Source: Patescibacteria group bacterium (lineage in GTDB: Bacteria; Patescibacteriota; Microgenomatia; UBA12405). Taken from it: 64,000 nucleotides of DNA. Below the pieces are notes generated by a model. It was given only the letters and a program-made list of their open reading frames with translations. It did not search any database and was not told the DNA's origin. Location of the stretch: positions 10,227-74,226 of the forward strand of contig WARW01000003.1 of the NCBI GenBank assembly GCA_013387215.1. The letters run 5' to 3'. Positions 15,490 to 60,318 of the stretch are shown here, one piece after another. Positions within the stretch are counted from its first letter, which is position 1. Every line of letters begins with the position of its first letter. The position numbers and the translations under genes were made by a program.

Positions 15490-18400
15490 TTATTTTTGAT
15501 TGAACTTGTAATAATTGTCAGCAAACTGACGAGGCACAAAATGCATCATATCGAGGCTGGTTAAGTTCTTTTTGGGAAGTCCGGTAATAATAATATTACT
15601 GCCAAAAAAATTGTTTATAGTGTCAAACTTTTTTTGAAAAAGCTTTTCTTTTATCATCATTCGAGCCTCATCGTAGCCAACATAAGTGGATAAATATTTA
15701 GTGCCAGCTACTTCATAATTTGTTTTAAGCGGATCGATAATTGATAATAATTGCTGCGGAATATTGGTTTGGTCATACAAATATATTAGTTTCAAATCGC
15801 CAAGAGCAGTTTCGGTAACTAATATATCACTTTTAGCGGTTAGATTGGCAAAAGATTTTTGATTAAAGATGTGATATTCATCGATCAAAGTTCCAGTTGG
15901 GGCAAGAATACCAACAATTTTAATTTTTGGCAGTCCAAAAAAGTTGGGTATTTCAGAACCAACACCTTTAATTAGGCCTTCTTCAATCATCATACTGGCC
16001 TCTTTAGATCCTAAAATAACATTATTTTCTCCTGATAAATCAAAGTTGCCTGCAGATAATTTTAAAGAGGATGGCAGATTGTCGACTCCTAAAATTAATT
16101 TAGGATTATTTTTGACAAAACCAATTTTTGAAGGATTATTTTTTAAAAGCTCATTTATTTCGGTTTTTATGGATGGCCGAGATTGGATATAGGCAACTAG
16201 ACCAGAATTGGATTGGGCATCAGCTCCCATTTTTGAAGAAAAGCTGGCAAATTCAATAAAAATAAGTAAAAAGAATGAAATCATCACAAAAGGAGCCAAT
16301 TTTGATATCCAATTAAACTTCCCTGGTTTGAAAAATTTTAAGGTTAAAGAGTTAGCCACCACTGAAACCGAAGATAAAGCCATGGCCAGACCTGCAAGTT
16401 CAGGTTTAAGAATTAAACCAATCCCCATCAAAGCACGAGCAGCGATGGGAATTCCCAGAATATTATAAAAGAGAGCAAAGAACATATTTTGACGAATTTT
16501 ACCTACGGTTTGGCGAGAAAGATCTATGGCTGTCAGAACTCCATTTAAATCATTACTGATAATGACAATACTACCTGATTCCATGGCGATATCAGCACCA
16601 CTACCCATAGCAATACCAAGATCAGATTGAGTTAAAGCAGGGGCATCGTTGATACCATCGCCAACCATAGCCACTTTAAAACCAGAATCTTGAAGTTTTT
16701 TGACTTCCTCCGCTTTGTTTTGAGGTAAAACTTCAGCTAATACATTGGTAATACCAAGCTGTTTGGCAATTGCGTCAGCAGTACGGTGATTATCACCAGT
16801 GATCATATATACAGCAATGCCCATTTTTTTAAGTTTGGAAACAACAGCAACTGAAGTTTCTTTAAGTTGATCGGCTACAGCAATTAATCCTAAAACTTTT
16901 TCTTTATTGGCGATAAGCATGGCAGTTTTACCATCATTCTCAAGCCTCTCCATATCATAAGAAGAAGTTAAGGGAATTTGATTCGCTTCCAATAGTTTAC
17001 GATTACCAACATAATAGGTTTGACCATTGACTACTGCTTTAACACCAGACCCAGGGATGGCCTGAAAATCTTCAATCGCATAGTTGATTGCCCCACAAGA
17101 TTGGCTATAACGAACAATCGATTCAGCCAAAGGATGTTCAGATTTTTGTTCGATTGAGTATAGAATTGAAAGAATTGTCTGATCACCTGGAAGATAGTTA
17201 ATAAAATCAGTTACTTCAGGTTTACCTTTAGTGAGAGTGCCAGTTTTATCAAAGACAATAGCTTCCAAATTTTGGGCCATTTCCAGCGGTTCGCCACCTT
17301 TAATTAAAACTCCATATTCAGCACCTTTACCAGTTCCAACCATAATAGAGGTAGGAGTGGCCAAACCAAGAGCACAAGGACATGCAATAACGATAACTGC
17401 CACAAAAGCTAATAAGGCGAAAGTTAAAGAAGACCCAAGCAAAAAGTACCAAATTACAAAAGTAAGGACGGCGATACTAATTACAGCTGGTACAAAAATT
17501 GAGGAAATCTTATCGGCAAAACCTTGAATTGGAGCTTTTGAACCTTGAGCATCTTCAATTAATTTGACGATTTGAGACAAAGCAGTGTCGGCACCAATTT
17601 TAGTGGTTTTAAACTCAAAAGAACCAGTCTTATTGATTGAAGCGGTATAAACTTTTGATCCAATTTGTTTTTCAACTGGTAATGATTCGCCAGTTAGAAT
17701 AGATTCATCAACAGCCGAGTAACCAGAAACTACTTCCCCATCCACAGGAATTCTTTCGCCAGGGCGAACAACAACAGTGTCGCCTACCATTACCTGTTCA
17801 ACAGGAATATCCACTGGTTGGCCATTTTTTAGAATACGAGCAGTTTTTGGGGCCAACCCCATTAATTTTTCAATAGCCTCAGAGGTCTTTCCTTTAGCTT
17901 TAGCTTCGAGCCATTTACCTAATGATACAAAAGTGATTAAGAAGGCGGCGACCTCAAAATAAAGATTGGGGATTTTGGAACCATTTAAGCCAATAAATGA
18001 ACCAGTTTCACTAAAATAATTAAAAAATTCAAATATGCTGTAAAAATAGGCTGTACTTGTGCCTATAGCAACTAAAGAATCCATGGAAAAAGTACGCATT
18101 TTTAAGGCTGACCAAAACCCAGCAAAAAAATTAGAACCAACGTAAAAAAGAACCGGAGTGGCTAATAATAAAGAGATCAATCCGGCGTATGGCATGACGA
18201 TGCTTTTAAATGGAACAGTATTGGTAAAATCGTAGACCATGAATAGAATCATGGGGATGCTTAGGATTAAACCGGTGAAGAATTTTGAAAACCAATATTT
18301 TATTTCCTGTTTTCTTTTTTCGTGCTGATTTTCTGTTTTTTCGTTAGGAAGCGAGGCTTTATAACCAGCTGCTTCAATGCTTTTAATCAAATCATCGATT

Positions 18401-18582
18401 TTGGCTGAACTAGGACTGTATACAACTCTGGCTTTTTCAGTGGCAAAATTAACATTAACCTCATTAACACCATTAACTTTTTTTAAAGACCGCTCGATAA
18501 GACCAGCGCAGCTGCTACAATGCATGCCAGTAATATCCAAATTTACGGCAATATTTTTTGTAGATGGGTTTTGATTTTCCAT
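15490..18582 (-). CDS. copA: copper-translocating P1B-type ATPase with ~285-aa C-terminal extension
   Basis: N-terminal HMA '[12 protein letters not shown]'; '[10 protein letters not shown]'; 'DKTGTLT'; 'GDGINDAP'; 1030 aa versus ~740 for the core, with an extra TM and a soluble tail. Confidence 0.9.
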
Positions 18583-18584
18583 AT

Positions 18585-18803
18585 TTATAGAAGCTGGGCT
18601 GTATAGCCAGAATTTTTTATAATTTTTATTAAATCTTCTGAATTAAGTTTGTCAGAATCAAATTCAACAGTAACTAGTTTTGTTTCTAAATTAGCATCAA
18701 CAGAAATAACACCATTAGTATCTTCTAAGTCCATTTGAATTAATTTTGGACAGGAAGGACAATGCATGTCGGAAACTTTAAATGTATTTTTTTGATTAGT
18801 CAT
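18585..18803 (-). CDS. copZ: copper chaperone (HMA domain)
   Basis: 72 aa, '[11 protein letters not shown]' MxCxxC motif. Confidence 0.8.
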
Positions 18804-18811
18804 GTTGGTTT

Positions 18812-19222
18812 TTAATTAATAACTTCAAAAGTACCCGTGTACATGCCCATGGTGCAACTGAAACGATAGGTTCCAGGTGCAACTGGAGTAAATTCTTTTG
18901 TAACTTGAGAGTTAGGGATAAGATCAATTCGGTCTGAGAAAAGCCCGTGAGAAACAATACTTCCAGCGCAGCCAGCATTGCCAGATGAAGTAATTTGCCA
19001 AACCACTGGTATGTTGGCTTTAATTTTAAAATTGTTTGGAGAATAACCAGCAGCCGAAGCAGTCATCTTAACAATTTGTTTACCATCTACAACTTGAACT
19101 AAGTCAGGGCCAGAAGCTGCATTGGAAACAGAGGGGTGTTTTTGGCTAAATATGAAAAAACCAAAAACAACGATTAAAACTATCGAACCTAAAACATAAA
19201 ATAGATTAGAAATATTTTTCAT
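18812..19222 (-). CDS. membrane-anchored cupredoxin-like domain protein
   Basis: N-terminal TM; C-terminal 'GCAGSIVSHGLF...YRFSCTMGMYTGTFEV' paralogous to the C-terminal domain of the neighbouring fusion protein; alternative TTG start at 19249. Confidence 0.55.
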   Translation of the reverse strand: MKNISNLFYVLGSIVLIVVFGFFIFSQKHPSVSNAASGPDLVQVVDGKQIVKMTASAAGYSPNNFKIKANIPVVWQITSSGNAGCAGSIVSHGLFSDRIDLIPNSQVTKEFTPVAPGTYRFSCTMGMYTGTFEVIN

Positions 19223-19230
19223 AGTTTTTA

Positions 19231-20694
19231 TTAATGATGACAACCACAACCTTTTGCACCAGATTCAATAATAGTTGGGGCTGCTCCAACAGAGTTGATA
19301 TTGCCTGATTTATCAAGCACTTCAAAAGTGCCCGTAACCATGCCCATCCAACAACTAAACCGATAAATTCCAGGAGTGTTGACAGTAAATTCTTTAACAC
19401 TGGTGGTTCCTGGAACTAAATCAATTTGACCGGAAAATAGTTGGCGGGAGATGATGGCATTAGTGCAACCACTAGTGCCCGTATCCTCTATTTCCCATTT
19501 AACAGGTATTCCAGCGCGAACTTTAAGTTTATTTGGAGCATATCCAGCAGATGAAGCTTTAATATGGATGATTTGCTTACCATCAATAATTGGAGGTAAG
19601 TCAGTGGCAATATTTTGAGATATGGTTTTAGGGGAAGTTAGAGATTCCAGATTAGAAACGCCTAAAACTGCCAATTGGGCATTTATATTAAAAAAGGCGA
19701 AGAATAAAACCAGAATTCCGGCAATTATAGAAAACTGCTGAGAAAATTTTGGATTAGAAAAAAGTTTAATACTGGTTAAGCCAATTGTGAGCAGGCCTGG
19801 TAGGGTGCCAATAGCAAATAAGCCCATGATTAAGGCACCTTGTATTGGATTACCAGAAGCTAATGCCAGTGCTTGGACTGTAATAGTAAAACCGCAAGGC
19901 AAGAAAAAGGTTAAAGCTCCCATAATTACCGGAGCAAATTTGCCAGTAAAATTAGACTCGTCTGAAAATCGGCGGGTTAAAGATTTGGGTAATTGAAGAC
20001 GAAATTTTTGCAGAGCTTTTATGCCAAGCATTTGTAAACCCAGAAGAATCATTAAGACAGATACAGCGATCACTAGGCTGGCTGAAAAAAGCGGCGTCAA
20101 TCTGAAGAAATTACCAATTTGGCCCAGAATGGCGCCAAAAGCAAGATAAGATAAAACCCGACCAGTATTAAACAAAAAGTGCGGTTGTAGTTTTTTGACG
20201 GTGGAATCGGAATTTGAATAAAGATTGTTCCATTGTTGAGACAAAGATAAAATAATACCGCCAACAAGAGCCGCGCAACTGGAAAAACCAGCGAGCAGAC
20301 CGAAAAGGAAAAACACAGGTAGAGAACTTTGTGCATTAACTGATATTAAAGAGGAAAATCCAGATTTACCTAATAAAATAAAAACTAAAATAAATAAAAG
20401 GCTAAAAAATAATGAAGAAAAAACATTGAGACGTTTTTTTTCTATTGGGCAAGAAACAGCTTTGGTGTTTTGTTTAGAAAATGGCTTGAGTGAAAACCGA
20501 TAGTTATCTTTTAAAAAGATATCGTTTAAATCTTTTAAAGATATTTTTATATTTCTTTTTGTTTCAAGAGATAAAGTTGACTTAGCTAAGGAAACCTCGG
20601 CTTTAACAACTCCTTGCTGCTTTAAAAGTTTCTTTTCGATTAGAATTTCACAAGAAGGACAATGCAGGCCAGAAATATAAAATAATTGTTTCAT
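19231..20694 (-). CDS. HMA domain - DsbD/CcdA-like permease - cupredoxin fusion with C-terminal GCGCHH tail
   Basis: 'ISGLHCPSCEILIEKKL' (HMA); ~6-8 TM central region; 'SGCTNAIISRQLF...YRFSCWMGMVTGTFEV' (cupredoxin-like); terminal 'KGCGCHH'; start at internal ATG (MKQLFYISG). Confidence 0.6.
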   Translation of the reverse strand: MKQLFYISGLHCPSCEILIEKKLLKQQGVVKAEVSLAKSTLSLETKRNIKISLKDLNDIFLKDNYRFSLKPFSKQNTKAVSCPIEKKRLNVFSSLFFSLLFILVFILLGKSGFSSLISVNAQSSLPVFFLFGLLAGFSSCAALVGGIILSLSQQWNNLYSNSDSTVKKLQPHFLFNTGRVLSYLAFGAILGQIGNFFRLTPLFSASLVIAVSVLMILLGLQMLGIKALQKFRLQLPKSLTRRFSDESNFTGKFAPVIMGALTFFLPCGFTITVQALALASGNPIQGALIMGLFAIGTLPGLLTIGLTSIKLFSNPKFSQQFSIIAGILVLFFAFFNINAQLAVLGVSNLESLTSPKTISQNIATDLPPIIDGKQIIHIKASSAGYAPNKLKVRAGIPVKWEIEDTGTSGCTNAIISRQLFSGQIDLVPGTTSVKEFTVNTPGIYRFSCWMGMVTGTFEVLDKSGNINSVGAAPTIIESGAKGCGCHH

Positions 20695-20710
20695 ACTACG
20701 TAGTGTAGTA
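20694..20710. promoter_or_regulatory. dyad motif TACTAC-N5-GTAGTA abutting start codon of HMA-permease gene
   Basis: TACTACGTAGTGTAGTA, perfect 6-5-6 inverted repeat filling the 23-nt gap between M56 gene stop and next start. Confidence 0.4.
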
Positions 20711-20717
20711 GATGTTT

Positions 20718-21626
20718 TCATTCTTTGCAATGGTCTGATAAAGAGATGTTTTGGTGAGAGAATAAAACTTCGACACATTTGACCAAATGGTTGCATTGAT
20801 AGAAAATTGTAGATTTACCAATAAAGGTAGTAGTAAACAAAATGAGAACCAATAAAAATGAATTTAGGGTAAAGAAGTTTTTGAAATTAGGCTTCTTTTT
20901 ATCAACTAAAACCGAAACGCGTTCATGAAATTCAGAAAAATTATTGAGATAAAAATTATTTCTTGTGTCAGGTTCTTCTATTTTTAACAGAGCAGAAACC
21001 AATGGTGTTTTTGATTTCAATTGAGTTTGGGCATAATTATCACAATTTATTTCTACCAATGCAGAATAATTTTTGAATATCCAGACTTTCTTTGGGAAAG
21101 AAGGTAAAAAGTGGTTGATTAAATCAACAATAAAATCTTTTAAAGGGTCAAAATTAAATTGATGTTTTTGTTCATGAAAAATAATCGCTTCCAATTCTTT
21201 TGGATTAACGGTTTTAATTAATTTTTCCGATATATAGATTTGAGGATTTAAAAAACCTGAAGTAAAGGCAATGACTTCTTTAATTTTGATCAAGTTATAC
21301 TGATTTTGTCTTTTTGATTTAAGGTTGTTTAAAAATTTTTTAGTTAAAAATATTTTATTAAAAGAATAATCGAGAGATTTAAAGAAGCGAAGTAAAAGAA
21401 TAAATAATATTATTCCGGATAAAACATTTATATAAAATGTCGAAGAAATAATTAAGGGAATTAAATTTTGATGATTATTTTTTAGGGCATCTATTAAAAA
21501 TATCAACTGCATCGAAAATCCAGAGAATATCTTTAAAAAGGCGAGTGATAAAAAGGATATGTAAAGAATTCCTAAAGTTAGGATGAATAAAAAAGCTAGA
21601 TTTCTTTGAAAACTGATTTTAGTCAT
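20718..21626 (-). CDS. M56-family (BlaR1/MecR1-like) membrane zinc protease without penicillin-binding sensor domain
   Basis: 4 TM helices, 'IIFHEQKHQ' HEXXH; 302 aa; Cys/His-rich C-terminus 'CNHLVKCVEVLFSHQNISLSDHCKE'. Confidence 0.65.
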   Translation of the reverse strand: MTKISFQRNLAFLFILTLGILYISFLSLAFLKIFSGFSMQLIFLIDALKNNHQNLIPLIISSTFYINVLSGIILFILLLRFFKSLDYSFNKIFLTKKFLNNLKSKRQNQYNLIKIKEVIAFTSGFLNPQIYISEKLIKTVNPKELEAIIFHEQKHQFNFDPLKDFIVDLINHFLPSFPKKVWIFKNYSALVEINCDNYAQTQLKSKTPLVSALLKIEEPDTRNNFYLNNFSEFHERVSVLVDKKKPNFKNFFTLNSFLLVLILFTTTFIGKSTIFYQCNHLVKCVEVLFSHQNISLSDHCKE

Positions 21627-21984
21627 TATTTTTCAAATATTCTTTTAATAACTCAATATCATTTTTATTGTTTTTAATAGTATCGACAAATTGGGAAATA
21701 GCCAACTTACCATATGAACCGACCAAATTGCCGTAAATTCCAGACAGATTAGATTCGATAAACTGATCTTTATTTAAAATGGGAGTATAAAAATAAACTT
21801 TACCTTCTAGTTTTCTTTTGACTATTTTTTTATCTGACATTCGCTTGAGAACAGTCATAATTGTGGTGTAGGCCTGATCCCCTTTTAGACTCACTAGAAC
21901 TTCGGCAGGTTTTAAAGGACGGTTGGACTGCCAAAGGATATCCATTATCTTCTGTTCTAATTCACCAAGCATTTGGGTTTTCAT
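21619..21984 (-). CDS. BlaI/MecI/CopY-family transcriptional repressor
   Basis: 121 aa winged-helix 'LGELEQKIMDILW...PAEV...TIMTVLKRMSDKKIV...KVYFYTP'; no C-terminal Cys metal motif; 8-nt overlap with M56 gene. Confidence 0.8.
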   Translation of the reverse strand: MKTQMLGELEQKIMDILWQSNRPLKPAEVLVSLKGDQAYTTIMTVLKRMSDKKIVKRKLEGKVYFYTPILNKDQFIESNLSGIYGNLVGSYGKLAISQFVDTIKNNKNDIELLKEYLKNND

Positions 21985-21985
21985 A

Positions 21986-22002
21986 TACTACTTAGTGTAG
22001 CA
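21986..22002. promoter_or_regulatory. second copy of dyad motif, 1 nt upstream of repressor start codon
   Basis: TACTACTTAGTGTAGCA (one arm mismatch) in the 47-bp region upstream of the repressor gene. Confidence 0.4.
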
Positions 22003-22031: not shown

Positions 22032-23420
22032 TTATTGCTTACATTGACCATTGTAGACTGGTGAACAACCAAGTTGGCTGTCGGTTCGCTGGCCAGAAGT
22101 GTCGTCAATATGTTTACGAAGCACTTGTTCTAGCTCATACCCTTTTTGAGGAATGGTGGAGATTAAATTGTTTTGCTCTTTAGGATCGTCATTTAGGTTA
22201 TAAAGCTCTTTGTTGCCGTTTTCTAAAGTTAAAATAAATTTCCAGCCATCTGGAGTCTGATAGGACCTTTTAAATGTATAAAGTCGATAATCAGTTTCAC
22301 TAAATACACTGTGGGCGACAGATTTACCATCAAAAACCGGAGTAAGATCAGCACCTTTTGTCTGTTCAGGAACAGGGTTTTTTATTCCCAATAAATCAAG
22401 CGCAGTTGGAACTATATCGAGAGTGCTTACTAGTTCATTAATTCTTTGGCCTTTGGTTTGGCCTGGTTTGTGAATAGCAAACAAAACATCAACTAGTTCA
22501 CCATAAAGAGTGTGGCCATGATCAAAACGATTATGTTCGTAGAATTCAGTGCCATGATCACTCATAACGATAATAATTGTATTATCCAAAAGTTTCATGT
22601 TGTTGATCTGATCCATAAAGTTTTTGAATTCAGCATCGGTACGATTAATCTTTTCATCATAAATAGCCCGCCAAAAAGCCACATCTTCGGGTGATAGATT
22701 TAAACTTTTACCAGCTAAACCGTCTTCACGAAGTTGACCTTGTTCGGTTGGACTGCCAGTATATTTGCCGTTATATGGCTTTGAAACATAGCGATAATCA
22801 AAACCACCGGCTGGTGCATGCTGCCCGTGAACATCATAGCCATGAAGGAAAAGGAAAAACTGCTTGTTTTTATTCTGCTTTAACCAGTCAACTGCTCTTG
22901 GTATGCTGCCATCGAAACCACCGAAGGTGCCAGTGGGTTCATAATAAGTATCAAAACCTTGACTAAAACCAAACTGCGGCCCAACTCCAGCATCGCCAGT
23001 AAAACCGCCAGTAACAAAACCTTGTTTTTTAAGAATTTCAGCAAGGGTCATGGCATTCGGAGAAAGTTTTTTTAAATTAGAAATAGTTCCCTTTTGGGCT
23101 TTCATATCGTAATCACTAAATTTGTTGACAACTTTATGTTCGGATGGATACATAGAAGTAAAGACAGACATGTGGGTTGGCACTGTCCAAGATGACGGAC
23201 TGACAGTATTGGTAAATAAAGTTGACTTATCAATAAAAGAATCTAAATTGGGAGTCGTGTTCAAAGAATAGCCATATTCATGCAAATGCTTGGCCTGCAA
23301 GCCATCGATCGAAACAAGAATAAGATTATATTTTTTATGAAATAGTTTTGGAGAAATCTTTATTGCAGCAACGGTTAGTAAGCTTAGAACAATGACACCA
23401 ATAAGAAATTTAATTTTCAT
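22032..23420 (-). CDS. membrane-anchored sulfatase-fold (alkaline phosphatase superfamily) protein, divergent paralog
   Basis: Signal/TM; 'TTPNLDSF', 'SSWTVPTHMSVFTSMYP', 'MSDHGTEFYEHNRFDHG' sulfatase-family motifs; lacks KKEGYF tail. Confidence 0.75.
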   Translation of the reverse strand: MKIKFLIGVIVLSLLTVAAIKISPKLFHKKYNLILVSIDGLQAKHLHEYGYSLNTTPNLDSFIDKSTLFTNTVSPSSWTVPTHMSVFTSMYPSEHKVVNKFSDYDMKAQKGTISNLKKLSPNAMTLAEILKKQGFVTGGFTGDAGVGPQFGFSQGFDTYYEPTGTFGGFDGSIPRAVDWLKQNKNKQFFLFLHGYDVHGQHAPAGGFDYRYVSKPYNGKYTGSPTEQGQLREDGLAGKSLNLSPEDVAFWRAIYDEKINRTDAEFKNFMDQINNMKLLDNTIIIVMSDHGTEFYEHNRFDHGHTLYGELVDVLFAIHKPGQTKGQRINELVSTLDIVPTALDLLGIKNPVPEQTKGADLTPVFDGKSVAHSVFSETDYRLYTFKRSYQTPDGWKFILTLENGNKELYNLNDDPKEQNNLISTIPQKGYELEQVLRKHIDDTSGQRTDSQLGCSPVYNGQCKQ

Positions 23421-23493
23421 ATCAAGTAAATCAAATTATATAAATGATATAAGTGTTATATTAAATTTATCTTTTAAAAGCAATAGACCGTAA

Positions 23494-25023
23494 ATGCGAT
23501 TGGGTAAAAAAATATTTATATTTGGTTTGCTGGGATTGATGATAATTGGGAGCGGTTTTTTGATTATTAAAAAAGTATCAAAAAAAACCTGCGATAAATG
23601 CAACATAATGCTTATCGATGTTGATATTTTGAGAGCAGATGAACTTCCCTGCTATGGATATCCCCGAAACACAATGCCAAACATTTGTGAATTTGCCAAA
23701 AAATCAGTAAGTTTTAAAGATAATTATTCGACTTCATATTGGACACTACCAAGTATTTTTTCAGTAATTACTTCACTATATCCAACTTTTCATCAAATGC
23801 AGGTTAATTATATGTTTGCACTGTCGTCTAGAATTCCGACTTTAGCAGAAACTTTACATAAGCAAGGATATAAGACTGTTTATGTGGGACAAAAAGACGA
23901 TTTAATGTCTAGTTATAATGGCGGTTTCCGCGGTTATGATTTAGTAACTCAAGAACCAATTGAAAAAGTAATTGATGAACTTTCAAAAAGTTCTCAACCA
24001 TGGTTTATACATAGGTATATCAGTGAATTGCATATGCCCTATTTATTGCCAGATAATTTAAAACCTGTGGAAGATTTGCCGGTTCCAAAAAATTTACCAA
24101 CTACTTATTACACTTTCGATTTATTTTTTAATAAATATTTAAAAGAACATTACAAAGAAATATTTAAACAGAAAGCAATCGATGAATATAGAGCAATTAT
24201 TTTAGGACCAGATAAGGCAGATGATATTAGTGTGACCAATCTTTTTGATAAATTGAGAGCTGACGATAAAACCATAAATGAATATTTATTAGATGCCTGG
24301 AGACCGAGATTAGATTTTTATTTAAAATCGTTTGACGGAAAAAATCCCCAAGATGTGGCTTATTTAAGAATGATGTATGACACTAAACTAAAATATCTTG
24401 ATGAAAAACTAAAACCTCTTTTACAAAGACTAGACTCGAGTTCATTGTCAAAAAACACTATTACAGTGATTATGTCGGATCATGGTGAAGCATTTGGCGA
24501 GCACGGAACGTTTTCACATGAGGATAATCATTTCACTGAACTATTTTACACTCCTTTAATAATCAGGGCTCCTCAATTTGAAGCAAAACAAGTTGAACAA
24601 ACCACAAATATAGTGGATATATTTCCGACTATTTTAGATTTAACAGGTGAGAAAAAAATTGATATGCATCAAGGGCAATCATTAGTACCTTATATGAATG
24701 GCCAAACTAAAAACGATACTACATTCAGCTTGAGCCAATCAATAGAAGGAACGCTTTTACAAAATAAGAATTGGCTGTACTTTTTACCAAACAGCGCTAA
24801 AGATATGAATGAATCAGAACTCTATAATAAAACCATCGACCCCCTGGAAAAAGTGAATGTGACTGGACAGAATCAAGATTTAGTTAAAACACTTTTTAAA
24901 AAAGCTGATTTATTCCGCTCATACGGAGGGATTGATTATGAAAAAGAAGAAATACCGTTGCCAAACCGGATGAAGTTGGACCCAGATAAAATAGAACGCC
25001 TTAAAAAAGAAGGATATTTTTAA
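23494..25023 (+). CDS. sulfatase-fold paralog 1 (Thr at sulfatase Cys position)
   Basis: N-terminal TM; 'DELPCYGYPRNTMPNICEF', 'STSYWTLPSIFS', 'MSDHGEAFGEHGTFSHE'; C-terminal 'KIERLKKEGYF'. Confidence 0.75.
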   Translation: MRLGKKIFIFGLLGLMIIGSGFLIIKKVSKKTCDKCNIMLIDVDILRADELPCYGYPRNTMPNICEFAKKSVSFKDNYSTSYWTLPSIFSVITSLYPTFHQMQVNYMFALSSRIPTLAETLHKQGYKTVYVGQKDDLMSSYNGGFRGYDLVTQEPIEKVIDELSKSSQPWFIHRYISELHMPYLLPDNLKPVEDLPVPKNLPTTYYTFDLFFNKYLKEHYKEIFKQKAIDEYRAIILGPDKADDISVTNLFDKLRADDKTINEYLLDAWRPRLDFYLKSFDGKNPQDVAYLRMMYDTKLKYLDEKLKPLLQRLDSSSLSKNTITVIMSDHGEAFGEHGTFSHEDNHFTELFYTPLIIRAPQFEAKQVEQTTNIVDIFPTILDLTGEKKIDMHQGQSLVPYMNGQTKNDTTFSLSQSIEGTLLQNKNWLYFLPNSAKDMNESELYNKTIDPLEKVNVTGQNQDLVKTLFKKADLFRSYGGIDYEKEEIPLPNRMKLDPDKIERLKKEGYF

Positions 25024-25068
25024 TAGGTGGTATATTAAACTGATAATTAAAAGTAATAGGCTGTTTTA

Positions 25069-26613
25069 ATGCTCAAAAGAAAATATCAAAAAATTATAAT
25101 CGGAGCGGGATTTATTTTGTTGATTATATTTGGGCTAATAGGACTTTTTAAACGAACAAACAAATTGCCATTTAAAGCCTGTACCAACTGCAACATTATA
25201 TTAATTGATATTGATATTTTAAGAGCTGATGAATTGCCTTGCTACGGATATTCCCGAAATACCACCCCAAACATTTGTAATTTTGCGAAAAAGGGTATGA
25301 TTTTTAATGACAACTATTCTCCATCCTATTGGACTATGCCTAGTATGTTTTCCACAATAACGTCTCTTTATCCAACTTTCCACCGAATCCAAATGAATTA
25401 CACTGAAGCTTTGTCGCCTAAAATTCCAACCCTTGCAGAAACTTTACACAAACAAGGCTACCGAACAATCTATATTGGCCCGGAAGACGACATGTTAAAA
25501 CACAATAATGGCGGCTTACGCGGTTATGATTTAGTGACTCAAGAACCGATTGAAAAAGTGGTAAGCGAATTGTCGAAAAGTTCTCAACCATGGTTTGTGC
25601 ATTACTATAATAGTGATTTGCATGCCCCATATTTATTTAATGAAAAACCTCAATTGATTGATAATCTTCCCGCCCCTAAAAATTTTCCAATTACTTATTT
25701 AGATTTCAGTATTCTTCTAAATAAATATTTAAAAGAACATTACAAAGAAATATTCAAACAGAAAGCTATCGATGAATATAGAGCAATTATTTTAGGACCA
25801 GATAAAGCAGATGATATTAGTGTAACTACTCTTTTTAACAATATTAGAGGCGATAAGAAAATAATGAATGATTATTTATTTGATGCCTGGGTGCCAATAT
25901 TAAACACTTATCTTGGTTCTTTTGATAAAAATAATGCCGATAATGTGGCATATTTACGCATGATATATGATACTAAACTTAAGATAATAGACGATAAGTT
26001 GGGAGCGCTTTTTCAAGAGTTGGATTCAGAAGCACTATCTAAAAACACCATAACAGCAATTTCGTCAGACCACGGAGAAGCGTTTGGAGAACATGGAACT
26101 TTTTCACATGAGGTTAACCATTTCACTGAACTATATTACACACCTTTAATAATCAAGGCTCCACAATTTTCAGGAAAAATAATTAATGAAACCAGCAGCA
26201 ACATTGATATTTTCCCGACTTTTTTAGACTTAACCGGCAGCGAAAAAATTAATAATCAGCAAGGCAAATCACTAGTTTCTTATATGAATAATGAAAATAA
26301 AAGTTTAGAGGGCTTTAGTGTCAGTGAATGTTCGGAAGGAATATTGCTGCAAAATAAAAAATGGTTGTATTTTTTATCAAATGAGGTTTCAGAATTTAAT
26401 AAATCGGAACTTTACGACAGGAAAAATGATCCATTAGAAAAAAATAATGTGGTTGGAAAGAATCCAGAATTAGCTAGATCACTTTACCGACAGGCTGATT
26501 TGTTCCGATCCTATGGCAAAATTGAATATAAAAAAGAAGAGATACCAATTAGTGAGCAAATTAAGTTGGATCCAGAAAAGATCGAACGTCTTAAAAAAGA
26601 AGGCTATTTTTAA
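25069..26613 (+). CDS. sulfatase-fold paralog 2
   Basis: ~70% aa identity to paralog 1; ~108-nt near-identical tract; tail 'KIERLKKEGYF'. Confidence 0.75.
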   Translation: MLKRKYQKIIIGAGFILLIIFGLIGLFKRTNKLPFKACTNCNIILIDIDILRADELPCYGYSRNTTPNICNFAKKGMIFNDNYSPSYWTMPSMFSTITSLYPTFHRIQMNYTEALSPKIPTLAETLHKQGYRTIYIGPEDDMLKHNNGGLRGYDLVTQEPIEKVVSELSKSSQPWFVHYYNSDLHAPYLFNEKPQLIDNLPAPKNFPITYLDFSILLNKYLKEHYKEIFKQKAIDEYRAIILGPDKADDISVTTLFNNIRGDKKIMNDYLFDAWVPILNTYLGSFDKNNADNVAYLRMIYDTKLKIIDDKLGALFQELDSEALSKNTITAISSDHGEAFGEHGTFSHEVNHFTELYYTPLIIKAPQFSGKIINETSSNIDIFPTFLDLTGSEKINNQQGKSLVSYMNNENKSLEGFSVSECSEGILLQNKKWLYFLSNEVSEFNKSELYDRKNDPLEKNNVVGKNPELARSLYRQADLFRSYGKIEYKKEEIPISEQIKLDPEKIERLKKEGYF

Positions 26614-26654
26614 TTAGGTTAATATATAAATAATATATTGAATAAATAAATTAC

Positions 26655-28196
26655 ATGAAGATTCTTTTTTTTAGAGAAAAAAAATACCGCAAGATTATTG
26701 TGTTAGTTGGTATAGCATTAATAATTGGGTTAGTACTTGCATGGAAAAGATTGCCTGAAAAAAAGTGTGAACACTGCAATATTGTAATGGTAGATATTGA
26801 TGTCTTAAGAGCTGATGAGTTGCCTTGTTATGGATATTCCCGAAACACCACTCCCAATATTTGCCAGTTTGCCAAAAAGGCGACTATTTTTAAAGATAAT
26901 TATTCGACTTCATATTGGACTTTACCTAGTATGTTTTCAACAATTACCTCTATGCTACCCACCTTTCATAAGGTGAGAACTGAATTTATCAACAAACTGT
27001 CCCCTGATACAAAAACACTAGCCGAAGTTTTACATAGCCAGGGATATCGAACAGTATATATTGGCGACGGCCAGAATCCTGCTTTATTAACCAAAGATAA
27101 CGGAGGCTTGAGAGGTTACGATATTGTGACAAAAGAACCGATCGAAAAAGTAATTGCAGATCTTTCAAAAAGCTCACAGCCATGGTTTATCCACTATTAT
27201 TTAGTTGATTTACATATGCCTTATTTATTACCAGAAAATGTGAAACCAATGGAAGATCTGCCAGCTCCAAAAAATTTGCCAATAAACCAAACCGATTTTG
27301 ACCGCATGTTAAATACCTATTTAAAAAAGCACTATAAACAAATATTTAATGAAAAAGCGATTGGAAAATACGGCTCGGTTATTTTAGCTCCAGATAAAGC
27401 AGATGATACCAGTGTGACTAAACTTTTCAACGATTTAAGATGGACTAGTAAAAGCATGACTGAATATTTTATTGACAGCTGGAAGCCTATTTTTAATTCA
27501 TATATGGATTCATTTGATAAGAATAATCCCAATGATGTGGCATATATTAGAATGATGTACGATACAAAATTAAAACTGGCTGACGAGCAACTACAATCTC
27601 TTTTTATAAAATTAGAGACAAAACCATTTTCTGAAAATACGATCTCGATAATTATGTCAGATCATGGAGAAGCGTTTGGAGAACATGGAACTTTTTCCCA
27701 TGACAATAATAGTTATACGGAACTTTATCACACGCCGTTAATAATTCGGGCACCTGGACTGCCTGCTAAAATTGTGGACCAAACTTCAAGCAACCTAGAT
27801 ATTTTTCCAACAGTTTTAGACTTAAATGAAATAAAAAAATTAGACAGTTTTCAGGGAAAATCATTAGTGGACAGTGTCAATAAAAAAACAGAAACTAAAT
27901 CATTTAGTCTAAGCGAATATTCTGATGGTGTAATTTTACAAAACCATGACTGGCTGTATTTCTTACCATTTTGGGTTGATAAGTTTGAAAACTCAATGTT
28001 GTTTGATAGAAATAAAGATCCTAAGGAAAAAAATAATGCAGCAAAACAGAATTTAGAGTTAACTCACTTTCTTTATAAACAAGCTGATTTATTGAGATCT
28101 TATAATGGAATTATTTATAAGCCAGAGGAAATTCCAAGCGATATTAAATTAAATCCTGAAAAAATAGAGCGTCTTAAAAAAGAAGGCTATTTTTAA
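26655..28196 (+). CDS. sulfatase-fold paralog 3
   Basis: Same motifs; tail 'KIERLKKEGYF'. Confidence 0.75.
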   Translation: MKILFFREKKYRKIIVLVGIALIIGLVLAWKRLPEKKCEHCNIVMVDIDVLRADELPCYGYSRNTTPNICQFAKKATIFKDNYSTSYWTLPSMFSTITSMLPTFHKVRTEFINKLSPDTKTLAEVLHSQGYRTVYIGDGQNPALLTKDNGGLRGYDIVTKEPIEKVIADLSKSSQPWFIHYYLVDLHMPYLLPENVKPMEDLPAPKNLPINQTDFDRMLNTYLKKHYKQIFNEKAIGKYGSVILAPDKADDTSVTKLFNDLRWTSKSMTEYFIDSWKPIFNSYMDSFDKNNPNDVAYIRMMYDTKLKLADEQLQSLFIKLETKPFSENTISIIMSDHGEAFGEHGTFSHDNNSYTELYHTPLIIRAPGLPAKIVDQTSSNLDIFPTVLDLNEIKKLDSFQGKSLVDSVNKKTETKSFSLSEYSDGVILQNHDWLYFLPFWVDKFENSMLFDRNKDPKEKNNAAKQNLELTHFLYKQADLLRSYNGIIYKPEEIPSDIKLNPEKIERLKKEGYF

Positions 28197-28209
28197 ATAA
28201 ATTTGAAAG

Positions 28210-29727
28210 ATGGATAAAAAAATAAGAAATGTTTTATTGGTTTTGTTAATTTTTGTCGTGGGAACGGCAGTATTTGCATTAATAAAGACTAGGACAAAGA
28301 AAACCTGTGATCATTGCAATATTGTGATAATGGATATTGATATTTTAAGAGCTGATGAATTGCCCTGTTACGGATATTCCAGAAATACGACCCCAAATAT
28401 TTGCCAGTTTGCCAAAAAGGCAACTGTTTTTAAGGATAATTATTCAACTTCTGTTTTAACACTACCAGATATGTTTTCGATAATTACATCTCTTTATCCA
28501 ACTTTTCACCATGTGAACACAGCAACAATCGATAAACTTTCAGCAAACATCCCTACTTTGACTGAGATATTGAAAAAAGAAGGCTACAGGACAGTTTTTA
28601 TTGGAGATAGTGAATATTCTGGAACAATAAATAATCAAAACAATGGGCTAAGAGGCTTTGATATGGTGACACAAGAACCGATTGAAAAGGTAATGGAAGA
28701 ATTATCAAAAAGTTCTCAACCATGGTTTATATATTATTACTCAGGCGACTTACATATGCCTTATTTACTGCCGAAAAACACAAAACCGATGGAAAATATG
28801 CCGGCTCCAAAAAACTTACCGATAAACCAAACTGATTTTGATAAACGGTTAAATATTTATTTAAAAAATCACTACAAAGAGGTTTTTAATAAAAAAGCCA
28901 TTAAAGAATATTCTTCAATAATATTATCGCCAGATAAACCAGCAACTGAACTGTTTTATTCCTTAAAAAGTGACAATGAAAAGATGAAAGAATACTTAAT
29001 CGATGTGTGGAAACCTGAGTTTAACGTGTATATGGAATCATTTGATCAAAATAATTCTTCAGAGGTAAGTTATGTCCGAATGATTTATGATACAAAGTTA
29101 AATTTAGTTGATAATAAACTTGAAAAGGTGCTTAAAAAACTGGACACAAAAGAATCAATAAAAAATACGATTACTTTAATTTCATCAAACCACGGAGAAA
29201 GCTTTGGAGAACATGGAAATTTTTCCCATAATTTTAGTCCTCACTCAGAACTTTATTACACTCCATTAATAATTAAAGCGCCACAACTTAAGGCAAAACA
29301 AATCCAAAATACTTCAAGTAATATGGATATCCTACCCACAATTTTGGATTTAACTGGAATAAAAAAGTTAGACAGTTTTCAAGGAAACTCATTGATCGCT
29401 AGTATTAATCAAAAAGAAAACTTAGAAAATTTTGCCATGAGTGAATATTGGGGAAATATAATTTTACAAAATAAAAAATGGCTATATTTTTTACCAGCAG
29501 AAGCTAAATACATTGAGCAATCAATGCTTTTTAATAAAGAGAATGATAAAGATGAAAATACCAATGTGTCGATGCAAAATACAGAACTAGTAAAGATGCT
29601 TTACAAAAGGGCGGATTTGCTACGTTCTTATAGTGGAATTAATTATAAAATAGAAACTATTCCTACTAATGAAATAAAAATAGATCCTGAAAAAATTAAG
29701 AGGATTCAAAAAGAAGGATATTTTTAA
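28210..29727 (+). CDS. sulfatase-fold paralog 4
   Basis: Same motifs ('SSNHGESFGEHGNFSH'); lacks KADDISVT segment; tail 'KIKRIQKEGYF'. Confidence 0.7.
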   Translation: MDKKIRNVLLVLLIFVVGTAVFALIKTRTKKTCDHCNIVIMDIDILRADELPCYGYSRNTTPNICQFAKKATVFKDNYSTSVLTLPDMFSIITSLYPTFHHVNTATIDKLSANIPTLTEILKKEGYRTVFIGDSEYSGTINNQNNGLRGFDMVTQEPIEKVMEELSKSSQPWFIYYYSGDLHMPYLLPKNTKPMENMPAPKNLPINQTDFDKRLNIYLKNHYKEVFNKKAIKEYSSIILSPDKPATELFYSLKSDNEKMKEYLIDVWKPEFNVYMESFDQNNSSEVSYVRMIYDTKLNLVDNKLEKVLKKLDTKESIKNTITLISSNHGESFGEHGNFSHNFSPHSELYYTPLIIKAPQLKAKQIQNTSSNMDILPTILDLTGIKKLDSFQGNSLIASINQKENLENFAMSEYWGNIILQNKKWLYFLPAEAKYIEQSMLFNKENDKDENTNVSMQNTELVKMLYKRADLLRSYSGINYKIETIPTNEIKIDPEKIKRIQKEGYF

Positions 29728-31292
29728 TGAAAGGCTTTTTAAGTAGAAAAAAACTTTTGTTGCTAGCATTATTGATTTTATTGTCGATAGTAATTGGTTT
29801 TGGATCGTGGACTTTTTATAAAAAAACAGAAAATAAGTCCGAAAAAAAGTGCGAGAATTGCAACATAATGCTTATTGATATTGATATTTTAAGAGGTGAT
29901 GAATTATCCTGTTTGGGATATTCCCGAAATACCACCCCAAACATTTGTGAATTTGCCAAAAATGGAGCTGTTTTTAAGGATAATTATTCGACTTCATATT
30001 GGACTCTTCCAAGTATATTTTCAACCATGACTTCTTTGTATCCGACTTTTCATGGGATGCAAAATGCAGGCAAGGATATTCTCTCTCCAAACATTACAAC
30101 TTTGGCTGAGGTGTTACATAAAAAAGGATATATGACGGTTATGGTAAACGGAAATAAAGATACAATGCAAATGCTGTTTGGCGATAATGAGGGTTTGAGA
30201 GGCTTTGAAATGGTTACAGCTGATCCGGTTGAAAAAGTTATAGATGACTTATCAAAAGACAATAGACCTTGGTTTATTTATTACTATAACTCAGAGCTGC
30301 ACTTTCCATATTTATTGCCAGAAAACACAAAACCGATGGAAGATTTGCCAGCTCCAAAAAATTTACCAATAAACCAAACTGATTTTGATACTTTACTAAA
30401 TAAATATTTAAAGACTCATTATACAGAAATATTTAAGCCAAAGATAATTGATAAGTACGGTTCGATTATTTTAGGGTCAAATAAAGAAGATGATATGGGT
30501 ATGGTGAAAATGTTTAATACTTTAAAAGCGGATCCTTCAAAAGTAAGCGAATATTTTATTAATGACTGGAATGCAAATTACCAAACTTACATGGAGTCGT
30601 TTGATCAAAATAATCCATCTGACGTTAAATATGTGCGAATGCTTTACGATACAAAATTAAAATTACTTGATAATAAAATGGGAAGTGTTTTACAAAAATT
30701 AAATTCGAAACAGCTTTCAGAAAATACAATCACAGTTATTACTTCAGACCATGGAGAAAATTTTGGAGAACATGGTTTTTTTACCCATATTGCCGATTTT
30801 CATTCCGAAGTGTTTTATATTCCATTAATTATTAAATCACCCAACATTTTACCGACAACAATCGAGCAAACAACAAGTAATATTGACATATTCCCTACTC
30901 TTTTAGATTTAACTGGCATCAATAGCCCGGGCGGACTACAAGGGATTTCTTTAGTTCCGTATATTAATAATCAGCACACAGAAAAACAATCATTTGCTAT
31001 GAGTGAATATTGGGGAAATGTGATTTTAGAGAATCATGATTGGCTGTATTTTTTACCTAAAGATGAGCAAGGTGTAGTCAAACCCACGTTCTATGACAGA
31101 ATTAAAGATCCGGCAGAAAAAGAAAATGTCATAGATAAATATCCTGAGATGGTAAATTCCCTTTATAAACAAGCCAGCCTGCTTCGCTCTTATAATGTTT
31201 TCTATGAAAATAAACCAATAGTAAAACCTGATGTAATCAAAAACATTGATAAAGTAAAATTAGATCGATTAAGGAAAGAAGGTTATTTTTAA
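29727..31292 (+). CDS. sulfatase-fold paralog 5
   Basis: TAATG start/stop overlap with paralog 4; tail 'LDRLRKEGYF'. Confidence 0.75.
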   Translation: MKGFLSRKKLLLLALLILLSIVIGFGSWTFYKKTENKSEKKCENCNIMLIDIDILRGDELSCLGYSRNTTPNICEFAKNGAVFKDNYSTSYWTLPSIFSTMTSLYPTFHGMQNAGKDILSPNITTLAEVLHKKGYMTVMVNGNKDTMQMLFGDNEGLRGFEMVTADPVEKVIDDLSKDNRPWFIYYYNSELHFPYLLPENTKPMEDLPAPKNLPINQTDFDTLLNKYLKTHYTEIFKPKIIDKYGSIILGSNKEDDMGMVKMFNTLKADPSKVSEYFINDWNANYQTYMESFDQNNPSDVKYVRMLYDTKLKLLDNKMGSVLQKLNSKQLSENTITVITSDHGENFGEHGFFTHIADFHSEVFYIPLIIKSPNILPTTIEQTTSNIDIFPTLLDLTGINSPGGLQGISLVPYINNQHTEKQSFAMSEYWGNVILENHDWLYFLPKDEQGVVKPTFYDRIKDPAEKENVIDKYPEMVNSLYKQASLLRSYNVFYENKPIVKPDVIKNIDKVKLDRLRKEGYF

Positions 31293-31298
31293 AAACAG

Positions 31299-32831
31299 AT
31301 GAAAAAAAAGATAAGTTTATTATTAATTGGATTAATGGTTTTTTTTACAATCGCTGCTTTTTTAATAAAAAAAGAAGTTATTAATAAACCTAAAATCTGC
31401 AAGCATTGCAATATCATGCTTATTGATGTGGATGTATTGAGAGGAGATGAATTGCCCTGCTATGGATATTCCCGAAACACCACCCCAAACATTTGTGAAT
31501 TTGCCAAAAATGGAGCTGTTTTTAAGGATAATTATTCGAACTCAATAATGACGCTGCCAAGTATGTTTTCCACTATCACTTCGCTTTATTTAACTTTTCA
31601 TAAAGTAGAAGTAAGTTTTGCTGATAGACTTTCGATAAAAATACCAACTTTAGCAGAGACATTACAAAAAGAAGGATATAGAACTGTATTTATAGGCAAA
31701 AGCGATGACCCTTCCACACTAAACCAAGAAAATGGAGGTTTACGAGGTTATGATTTAGTGACTCAAGATTCAATCGATAAGGTTGTGGACGATTTATCAA
31801 AAAGTTCTCAACCTTGGTTTGTGCACTACTATAATTCAGATTTACATATGCCCTATTTATTGTATGATGGCATGAAACCAATGGAAAATTTGCCAGCTCC
31901 GAAAAATATGCCAATCAGTTATTCGGATTTCGATAAACTGTTAAATACTTATTTAAAAAAACATTCAACTGAAATATTTAATAAAAAAGCAATTGAGGAA
32001 TATTCATCAACAATATTGGCACCAGATAAAGAAAACGATGTGAGCGTGACCCAGCTTTTTTATACCCTTCGCAATGATCCTAATAAAATGAAAAAATATT
32101 TAATTGATGGCTGGAAACCGATTTTTGATTCTTATATGGGATCGTTTGATAAAAATAATGAAAAAGATTTGGCTTATTTAAGGATGATGTATGATTCTAA
32201 TCTTAATTTGGTGGACAAAAAGTTGGAGCCAGTTTTGAATAAATTAAAATCAAAATTATTAGCAAAAAACACTATAAGTATATTTATGTCAGACCATGGC
32301 GAAGCTTTTGGTGAACACGGAACTTTTACTCACGACTACAACCATCACACAGAGCTATTTTATACACCATTAATAATTAAAAGTCCTAGTTTTTCAGGAA
32401 AAGTGATTGACCAAACTACAAGTAATATCGATATTTTTCCAACTATTCTCGAACTTGCAGGAATTAGAGACCCAGGTGTTTTACAAGGACAATCGTTGGT
32501 TCCGCATATGAAGGGAGTGGCCGAAAATTCAAGACCATTTGCCATAAGTGAATATTACAATGGCACGGTTTTACAAAACCATAACTGGTTTTATTATTTA
32601 CTGAACAGTGAAAATATTGAAAATTCGATACTTTATGACAAAATAAATGATCCTTTGGAAAAGGATAATGTATCTTTAAAACATCCAGACTTAACAATGA
32701 ATCTTTTCAAACAAGCAGATATTTTGCGTGTATATAATAGAAATTATAATAAGGAAGAGATTCTAAGATCCGAAAAGACTGGATTAGATCAGACAAAAAT
32801 AAAAAGGATTCAAAAAGAAGGATATTTTTAA
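31299..32831 (+). CDS. sulfatase-fold paralog 6
   Basis: 76-nt tract near-identical to paralog 5 (SRNTTPNICEFAKNGAVFKDNYS); tail 'KIKRIQKEGYF'. Confidence 0.75.
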   Translation: MKKKISLLLIGLMVFFTIAAFLIKKEVINKPKICKHCNIMLIDVDVLRGDELPCYGYSRNTTPNICEFAKNGAVFKDNYSNSIMTLPSMFSTITSLYLTFHKVEVSFADRLSIKIPTLAETLQKEGYRTVFIGKSDDPSTLNQENGGLRGYDLVTQDSIDKVVDDLSKSSQPWFVHYYNSDLHMPYLLYDGMKPMENLPAPKNMPISYSDFDKLLNTYLKKHSTEIFNKKAIEEYSSTILAPDKENDVSVTQLFYTLRNDPNKMKKYLIDGWKPIFDSYMGSFDKNNEKDLAYLRMMYDSNLNLVDKKLEPVLNKLKSKLLAKNTISIFMSDHGEAFGEHGTFTHDYNHHTELFYTPLIIKSPSFSGKVIDQTTSNIDIFPTILELAGIRDPGVLQGQSLVPHMKGVAENSRPFAISEYYNGTVLQNHNWFYYLLNSENIENSILYDKINDPLEKDNVSLKHPDLTMNLFKQADILRVYNRNYNKEEILRSEKTGLDQTKIKRIQKEGYF

Positions 32832-32838
32832 AAAATAA

Positions 32839-59971: not shown

Positions 59972-60318
59972 CCTAAAATAATATACATTTGATATATTCC
60001 CCTAGCTAAAATAATGACGTTTTTACAACGTGAAAACCCCTAAAATCAGTACTGTGCTGACATTTTTTTGATAGAAAATTTTTTCTTTTCAAGATTCCCC
60101 TCTCGGAACCAGGTTCGATTTTGAAAAATACCATCTGAACTCGTTTGTATTTACATTAAAAATACTTACATATATCTATAATCACGTCATTACATTTTTT
60201 CACGTTACTCCTTATAATTAATTAGCTTGGTTATGACTATTTTTGGCAAGTAATAACCGCATAATAACCGATTTATTACCGTAAGAAAATAGTAAACATT
60301 TAAACTAAAATAAGTAGT

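Follow-up and report, generated by a model that had tools for sequence, protein, structure and literature searches.

Why two copies of one inverted repeat should lie directly against start codons in a copper-handling operon is the question raised by a 64,000-nucleotide stretch of DNA from a Patescibacteria group bacterium (assembly GCA_013387215.1, contig WARW01000003.1, positions 10,227 to 74,226; the whole of this stretch is called the window below). The genes of this cop operon all lie on the minus strand, from a repressor of the BlaI/MecI/CopY family through to CopA. A sequence-only reading of the window had proposed that the repeat, a TACTAC-N5-GTAGTA dyad, is the operator of that repressor or, alternatively, an RNA hairpin that occludes translation initiation. 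Our comparisons strongly support the first proposal and speak against the second. What that reading had missed is a promoter: we propose, with a probability of roughly 0.75, that the dyads are operators of a BlaI-family repressor dimer built into sigma-70-type promoters for leaderless mRNAs, and that they abut the start codons because these promoters are leaderless.

First, we searched the window for the dyad. Both copies are where the sequence-only reading had placed them (Table 1), and TACTACNNNNNGTAGTA at up to one mismatch has no further copy in the 64 kb. These two matches compare with 0.05 expected, and none of 100 shuffles gave two, so that a chance origin was rejected. At two mismatches four extra weak matches appear (8034, 20816, 45573 and 60303), against 1.03 expected in total. 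The site at 20816-20832 lies within the M56 protease gene, has no counterpart in orthologues at up to one mismatch, and was treated as chance. The site at 60303-60321 (AACTAAAATAAGTAGTATG) stands at the start of an open reading frame (ORF) of 1017 aa (60319-63372), with a -10-like TAAAAT followed by 7 nt and then ATG; it possesses the right half-site GTAGTATG (60314-60321) and lacks the left one.

On the coding strand copy A reads TGCTACACTAAGTAGTA-T-ATG and thus ends 1 nt upstream of the repressor ATG, as the sequence-only reading had it. Copy B, TACTACACTACGTAGT[A]TG, had been described as touching the ATG of the permease gene and as filling the gap between that gene and the M56 gene. It does more than touch the ATG, its last base being the A at 20694 with which the permease starts (MKQLFYISGLHCPSC), and it does not fill the whole gap, 7 nt (20711-20717) being left before the M56 stop codon (20718-20720). 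The permease N-terminus aligns with those of orthologues whose start is the dyad's ATG. For the repressor, the conserved MKT N-terminus and the distance to the operator argue for a start at Met1 (21984; 21973-21984 in the window). An identical protein in a public collection (P0001; sources ncbi and lgn) has 117 aa, that is, it starts at Met5.

Comparison of orthologous loci, which the sequence-only reading had suggested as a check, showed that the dyad is kept at both gene starts. These loci were gathered by protein homology to the repressor and not via the motif, and the homologues belong to Patescibacteria, chiefly to Candidatus Shapirobacteria and Collierbacteria. L001-L011 are the 11 closest loci (54-65% identity). 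In these, one dyad either has the A of the repressor ATG as its last base or ends 1 nt short of the ATG, and a second dyad lies about 1.3 kb downstream, on the ATG of the HMA-permease, wherever the contig reaches that far. All coding-strand N5 matches in these 11 loci sit at the starts of repressor, permease or cupredoxin-like genes. Counterparts of copy A at the same place were also found in L047, L050, L053 and L058. Altogether, the loci contain 18 N5 sites at starts of BlaI-type genes and 13 at permease starts, 11 of the latter with the same 1-nt overlap of the ATG. Positions 3-7, 9 and 13-17 do not vary among the 17 distinct site sequences. The spacer is constrained as well, its first three bases, ACT (AAT in orthologues), being conserved.

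The dyad also accompanies PF03965 genes over a wide taxonomic range that comprises Patescibacteria, Actinobacteria, one Chlamydiales metagenome-assembled genome (MAG) and MAGs labelled Aquificales. In the actinobacterial blaI loci the sites take the form TAC[T/G]AC-N5-GT[A/C]GTA and lie 20-90 nt upstream of the start, with three TACTAC-N5-GTAGTA copies upstream of blaI in two Aeromicrobium loci (L054 and L056) and TACGAC-N5-GGTAGTA upstream of blaI in a Mycobacterium locus (L077). The Chlamydiales MAG (L071) has a 16-bp TACTAC-N4-GTAGTA 12 nt upstream of its blaI start. In L054 and L056 (at about 4900-4980) the three perfect sites occupy the divergent region between blaI and a gene whose product starts MEVLDLARWQFGITTVYHFFFV, presumably a cytochrome bd subunit I.

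The geometry of the dyad is known from the family. It is an inverted repeat with a (T)ACA/TGT(A)-type core (TACTACA...(T)GTAGTA) that lies at the promoter of the repressor's own operon, next to a PF03965 gene. Its xAC-N5-GTx core is that reported for cyanobacterial PetR (10.1101/2020.07.31.226407), and a hexamer-N5-hexamer arrangement is also known from Clostridium thermocellum BlaI_0696, whose operator is a GTCTAT-N5 inverted repeat (PMC8457756). Orthologue conservation, the same half-sites at blaI genes of other phyla and this geometry together strongly support the operator that the sequence-only reading had suggested.

That reading had also set the dyad apart from the canonical cop box TACAnnTGTA, which in extended form is the 16-bp RNYKACANNTGTMRNY (PMC7253601). 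The distinction is correct for the window, where we found no canonical cop box, no match to TACANNTGTA and no 16-bp (N4) version of the dyad, and where TACA and xGTA are separated by 3 nt, against 2 nt in the cop box. It was however overstated, as the half-sites are of the same TACA/TGTA type with one extra spacer base, and related Patescibacteria possess 16-bp versions that contain TACAnnTGTA. These N4 sites (TACTACAnnTGTAGTA) are likewise fused to -10 boxes and start codons.

If the dyad is an operator, it remains to be explained why it reaches the start codon, and here the orthologous sites point to a promoter inside the dyad. Motif positions 4-9 read TACACT or TACAAT in 30 of 32 N5 sites, which would make a good -10 hexamer, and 22 of 31 orthologous sites have a TTGACA-like -35 hexamer at a spacing of 16-18 nt upstream. 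The five sites that start with TGC, copy A included, are all devoid of a -35 box, and their TGcTACA[A/C]T corresponds to an extended -10; the orthologues without a -35 box that read TGCTACA[A/C]T are L001, L005, L011 and L053. This association of TGC with a missing -35 box gives a Fisher p of about 7e-4, calculated by hand over sites that are not phylogenetically independent. The ATG usually stands 7 nt past the -10 hexamer, and at sites of the TGn class 9 nt past it. The case for these promoters rests on the orthologues and not on a generic promoter scan, which in this region found sites no commoner than in shuffles and left both dyad promoters (TACACT with TTGCAA or with TGn) below its thresholds. 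In L004, L007, L009 and L010 the TGA that ends the protease gene lies within the TTGACA (-35) of the permease promoter that follows, and gene end and promoter thus overlap.

A promoter placed so close to the ATG would be at home in this genome. A TAnnnT hexamer ending 5-8 nt before the ATG is found at 25 of the 53 confident gene starts of the window, compared with 9.8% of other ATGs (binomial p = 3e-12); flanking distance bins hold 7-12 genes each. We used this positional test because a strict search for TTGACA-N16-18-TAnnnT within the window yielded too few sites to inform. The -10-like hexamers at gene starts often come with TGn, for example TGGTAAAAT at about 56830 and 58575. The sequence-only reading had remarked that the genome generally lacks Shine-Dalgarno (SD) sequences, and this holds for the window, where only 1 of the 53 starts has an SD-like motif. 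Since SD motifs are nearly absent and -10 boxes are enriched at gene starts, transcripts are probably leaderless, including the cop transcripts from both promoters, where a -10 box 7 nt (copy B) or 9 nt (copy A) before the ATG is accompanied by a -35 box or by TGn and there is no SD site. Leaderless transcription thus appears to be the normal mode for operon-first genes in this organism, and the genome appears to rely mainly on leaderless mRNAs and on tight gene coupling.

The presence of a -10 box in the motif could mean that the adjacent BlaI-family protein does not target the dyad, and that the dyad only belongs to strong leaderless promoters as such or serves an unrelated regulator. Positions 4-9 are indeed accounted for in this way, and GTAGTATG recurs at one further apparently leaderless start, that of the 1017-aa ORF. 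Two occurrences of GTAGTATG in the window are nonetheless within chance (0.63 expected; at least two in 15 of 100 shuffles). Moreover, neither the outer TAC nor the GTAGTA arm is a promoter element, and none of the remaining 23 window starts with a -10 box 5-8 nt upstream possesses the dyad, which has its only two sites in the 64 kb in this operon. The dyad also tracks PF03965 genes across phyla, and its half-sites match the TACA/TGTA core of the family (PMC7253601). We consider that this explanation has only the slightest chance of being right.

The promoter also bears on the RNA hairpin, according to which the dyad would pair with itself in the mRNA (a stem of 6 bp, a loop of 5 nt), mask the start codon and so control translation. 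The dyad is foldable, with -4.4 kcal/mol for the 17-mers and -7.1 and -9.1 kcal/mol for the 46-nt contexts (z-scores -2.7 and -4.3), read-through transcripts from promoter A would contain copy B, and a genome that lacks SD sites might favour such a control. However, a stem of -4.4 kcal/mol for 17 nt is weak, and no compensatory change was found: across the 17 distinct sites none of the six pairs is changed on both sides, three being invariant and the rest changed on one side or broken. The unpaired loop bases A7 and T9 are invariant, which the operator-promoter explains because they would be part of the -10 box. An Rfam scan gave no relevant match, its sole match at E <= 1 being a sub-threshold snoRNA model inside the repressor gene. 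In addition, the -35/-10 arrangement predicts transcription to start at the ATG, so that the left arm lies upstream of the predicted start site and would be missing from transcripts of the proximal promoter. Finally, the actinobacterial dyads, located 20-90 nt upstream of blaI and sometimes in threes in divergent intergenic regions, behave as operators. A hairpin that occludes initiation is therefore very unlikely.

We thus return to operators that are part of leaderless promoters. On the coding strand the proposed layout is a -35 box (TTGACA in orthologues, TTGCAA at copy B), 14 nt, and TAC-TACA[C/A]T-NN-GTAGT-ATG. The left half-site would overlap the -10 hexamer, and the right half-site would span the predicted transcription start and reach the start codon. 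With an operator that extends from the -10 box over the start site to the start codon, RNA polymerase would be blocked at both promoters once the repressor is bound. Through copy A the repressor-protease pair would be autoregulated, and through copy B the genes for the permease, the cupredoxin, CopZ and CopA would be controlled. The need for a second operator can be understood in the same terms. In a genome without SD sequences, a gene that is not translationally coupled would need an AUG at the 5' end of its own transcript, which calls for a separate promoter and with it a separate operator, and the permease gene, 23 nt past the protease stop and not coupled to it, would be such a gene. What the present analysis adds to the earlier reading is the idea of a single compact module, in a leaderless, SD-less genome, in which the dyad is united with -10 box, start site and start codon.

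How would repression be relieved? In its gene order the operon resembles BlaI-BlaR1 and PetR-PetP modules: the repressor gene is followed, with an overlap of 8 nt, by the gene of an M48/M56 protease with an HExxH motif. Copper would most likely act through this co-encoded protease, which is devoid of a sensor domain and would remove the repressor according to the logic of BlaI/BlaR1 and PetR/PetP. The protease passes the M48 model (PF01435, 31 bits). No transpeptidase or penicillin-binding domain was found in it with Pfam, and the protein stops about 30 residues past its last hydrophobic segment. This C-terminal tail (20718-20810; STIFYQCNHLVKCVEV...) stands where BlaR1, by homology with its topology, has the extracytoplasmic penicillin-binding sensor domain. 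It contains CNHLVKC, and the corresponding CxHLxxC motif is present in the window protease and in 11 orthologues (L001 and L003-L012), more distant relatives having CPxDxxCxxxC in the tail. Our hypothesis is that the CxHLxxC tail senses copper.

Alternatively, the dyad could be an operator and the promoter model hold, with derepression brought about, in the manner of CopY, by direct binding of metal to the repressor. CopZ, CopA and HMA proteins make up a classic cop regulon, CopY-type regulators run such operons by Cu(I)/Zn(II) allostery (PMC11672702), and TIGR02698 (CopY) is the best NCBIfam match of the repressor, though with 45.5 bits it is far below the cut-off of 121.95. CopY is however defined by a C-terminal CxCx4CxC or CxC metal-binding motif (PMC11672702), and the repressor, which has no cysteine in its 121 aa and ends in ...LLKEYLKNND, carries neither. 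Judged by its sequence, it is not a CopY. In its clade an M48/M56 protease gene invariably overlaps or adjoins the repressor gene on the downstream side, and it is the related repressors without a protease that have a Cys cluster instead, at their N-terminus. Direct sensing by the repressor therefore seems unlikely, and proteolysis by the partner protease remains our preferred mode of derepression.

These protease-less relatives form a second clade of Patescibacteria repressors, with the N-terminal cluster MNCDCHCNGKC and no adjacent protease gene, and often with 16-bp TGCTACAATTGTAGTA-type sites at their own start codon. They may sense metal directly, like CopY, through a site at the other terminus of the protein. 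Members were found in L017-L042 and as second genes in L002, L007, L008 and L009. A rule by which N5 sites go with a protease partner and N4 sites with a Cys-rich repressor was considered and rejected, as N4 sites are also found with protease-partnered repressors (L012-L016, L020 and L041). Operator spacing is thus labile in evolution and does not simply track the type of partner.

Several observations weigh against the proposed operator-promoters and their protease-coupled relief. Fairly close orthologues can differ in their spacing, N4 or N5 (the 16-bp version stands at both gene starts of L012, a locus with 61% identity), and this blurs the exact recognition geometry. The window promoters are weaker than those of the orthologues, copy A having only TGn and no -35 box and copy B a TTGCAA that agrees at four of six positions. 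At copy A and five other repressor-start sites the ATG lies 9 nt past the -10 box, which would allow a 2-nt leader, so that a strictly leaderless start is less certain at these sites. The M56 model (PF05569) scored 27.3 bits, under its gathering threshold of 31 bits, and only M48 passed. Last, copper as the inducer is deduced solely from the regulated genes. Binding of the repressor to the dyads, the point at which transcription starts, the role of copper as the signal and the proteolytic step are what we infer.

Among known systems, PetR/PetP of cyanobacteria is the closest and, by analogy, the nearest functional counterpart. In Synechocystis (slr0240/slr0241) PetR is degraded in a copper- and PetP-dependent manner, and its core operator is GAC-N5-GTC or GACA-N3-TGTC, that is, xAC-N5-GTx (10.1101/2020.07.31.226407). 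Both systems have a BlaI/CopY-family regulator without the CopY Cys motif (compared here by description and not by sequence), an overlapping downstream M48/M56 HExxH protease without a beta-lactam sensor domain, a copper-related regulon and the same core geometry, TACA-N3-xGTA here corresponding to GACA-N3-TGTC there. They differ in the half-site (TACTAC here, GAC there) and in the regulon, which here concerns copper efflux and handling and there the switch between plastocyanin and cytochrome c6 (petE/petJ). PetR sites lie between -35 and -10 (petE) or at -35 (petJ, which PetR activates), 75-118 bp from the ATG (10.1101/2020.07.31.226407), whereas the dyads of the window would stretch from the -10 box across the start site to the start codon, at genes that are apparently leaderless. 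The candidate copper ligands differ too: the C-terminal CxHLxxC tail here, and in PetP two Met residues that were suggested in the TM2-TM3 loop (10.1101/2020.07.31.226407).

Actinobacterial BlaI proteins are related to the repressor by both protein and site. The closest solved structure is 2G9W (E = 4.9e-10), which we take to be M. tuberculosis BlaI (Rv1846c), and the two proteins have the recognition-helix sequence AYTT[IV]M in common. The partner protease BlaR (Rv1845c) presumably also lacks a sensor domain. The comparison of motifs, which rests on L054, L056 and L077, shows the same type of dyad upstream of blaI; unlike those of the window, these sites are often multiple and their spacer is not conserved as a -10 box. 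The BlaI regulon of M. tuberculosis is reportedly not a cop operon, in work by Sala et al. from 2009.

With CopY/CopR the system shares the protein family, an ACA/TGT half-site core, the position of the operator at a cop-operon promoter, two operators per operon and, in related Patescibacteria, the 16-bp sites with a cop box. It differs by the extra spacer base (N5 between the hexamers), with no canonical cop box in the window, by a protease-paired repressor without a C-terminal Cys metal site, and by two operators that would serve separate promoters about 1.3 kb apart and not one promoter. The BlaI-BlaR1 and MecI-MecR1 systems of Staphylococcus and Bacillus likewise combine repressor and membrane zinc-protease genes, autoregulation and dyads overlapping promoter elements. 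Their operators nevertheless are TACA-N2-TGTA within longer palindromes and their targets concern beta-lactam resistance and not metal handling, and the protease of the window (302 aa), like PetP, has no penicillin-binding sensor domain. The switch is thus of an ordinary kind, protease-coupled and of the BlaI/PetR type, with a layout that is unusually compact.

Most bacteria of the Candidate Phyla Radiation are uncultured, and in the literature searched we found no description of their promoters, operators or leaderless translation. The locus offers a clean, comparatively supported example of regulation in these organisms: a sigma-70-type promoter with the consensus TTGACA-N16-18-TAnnnT, leaderless gene starts as the apparent default, and a probable repressor site superimposed on -10 box, start site and start codon alike. 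By analogy, it would extend the protease-coupled, copper-responsive BlaI-type switch, shown experimentally so far in cyanobacteria (PetR/PetP), to the copper efflux genes of a distant phylum, with the CxHLxxC tail of the protease as a testable candidate sensor motif. We can tentatively go one step further, in a combined proposal that we regard as possible and hold with less than even confidence. Regulated genes of SD-less Patescibacteria would use a module of about 36 bp that fuses the -35 box, the -10 box, the repressor dyad and the start codon, one copy for each translationally uncoupled cistron; copper efflux would be controlled via proteolysis, the sensor being a minimal M48/M56 protease whose CxHLxxC tail is a new copper-sensing element.

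The 19-nt string TACTACAMTNNGTAGTATG, together with an upstream TTGACA, could serve to find regulon members and true start codons in metagenomes (such as Met1 of the repressor, against Met5 in the database). Scanning metagenome contigs for this exact pattern gave at least 107 unique sites. Among the matches listed, a TTGACA-like -35 box at 17-nt spacing was found at 32 sites, 30 of which open a long ORF at the ATG of the motif; where this box is missing, 36 of 75 sites do so. Those downstream ORFs among these matches to which a class could be assigned encode BlaI-type repressors, HMA-permeases and CopZ-like proteins, and representatives of the other ORFs with a -35 box encode DsbA-like thioredoxins and a DUF1573 protein with a CGC motif. 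They form a coherent set related to metal and thiol stress.

Table 1. Window coordinates of the dyads, predicted promoter elements and genes of the cop operon
Feature	Position	Strand	Remarks
Candidate operator A	21986..22002	minus	coding strand TGCTACACTAAGTAGTA; ends 1 nt before the repressor ATG (21984)
Predicted extended -10, TGc-TACACT, in operator A	21994..22002	minus	no -35 box
Candidate operator B	20694..20710	minus	coding strand TACTACACTACGTAGTA; final A (20694) is the A of the permease ATG
Predicted -10 hexamer, TACACT, in operator B	20702..20707	minus	7 nt before the ATG
Weak predicted -35, TTGCAA	20725..20730	minus	17-nt spacer to the -10 of operator B; within the 3' end of the M56 gene
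BlaI/MecI/CopY-family repressor	21619..21984	minus	121 aa; PF03965 (penicillinase-repressor family), E = 4.5e-23
M48/M56-type membrane metalloprotease	20718..21626	minus	302 aa; HEQKH; no penicillin-binding sensor domain
HMA + DsbD_2 permease + cupredoxin fusion	19231..20694	minus	487 aa; first gene of the proposed second transcription unit
Cupredoxin-like protein	18812..19249	minus	tightly spaced after the permease gene; alternative start ATG at 19222
CopZ-like HMA copper chaperone	18585..18803	minus	
CopA-type P1B ATPase	15490..18582	minus	1030 aa; start 2 nt past the CopZ stop codon

Two further observations concern CopA and the neighbourhood of the operon. In CopA the Pfam ATPase and hydrolase domains end near residue 686, and the C-terminal part of about 340 residues has no domain match. 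On the other side of copy A, positions 22032-34227 hold an array of about eight paralogous genes, each encoding 460-520 aa. The minus strand carries one of them (22032-23420), and the other seven follow in tandem on the plus strand (23494-34227). The first gene has a Pfam match to Sulfatase/phosphodiesterase, and the remaining copies were related to it by eye, from translations and upstream sequences. The ending ...KKEGYF is shared by at least three of the plus-strand copies and apparently by all seven.

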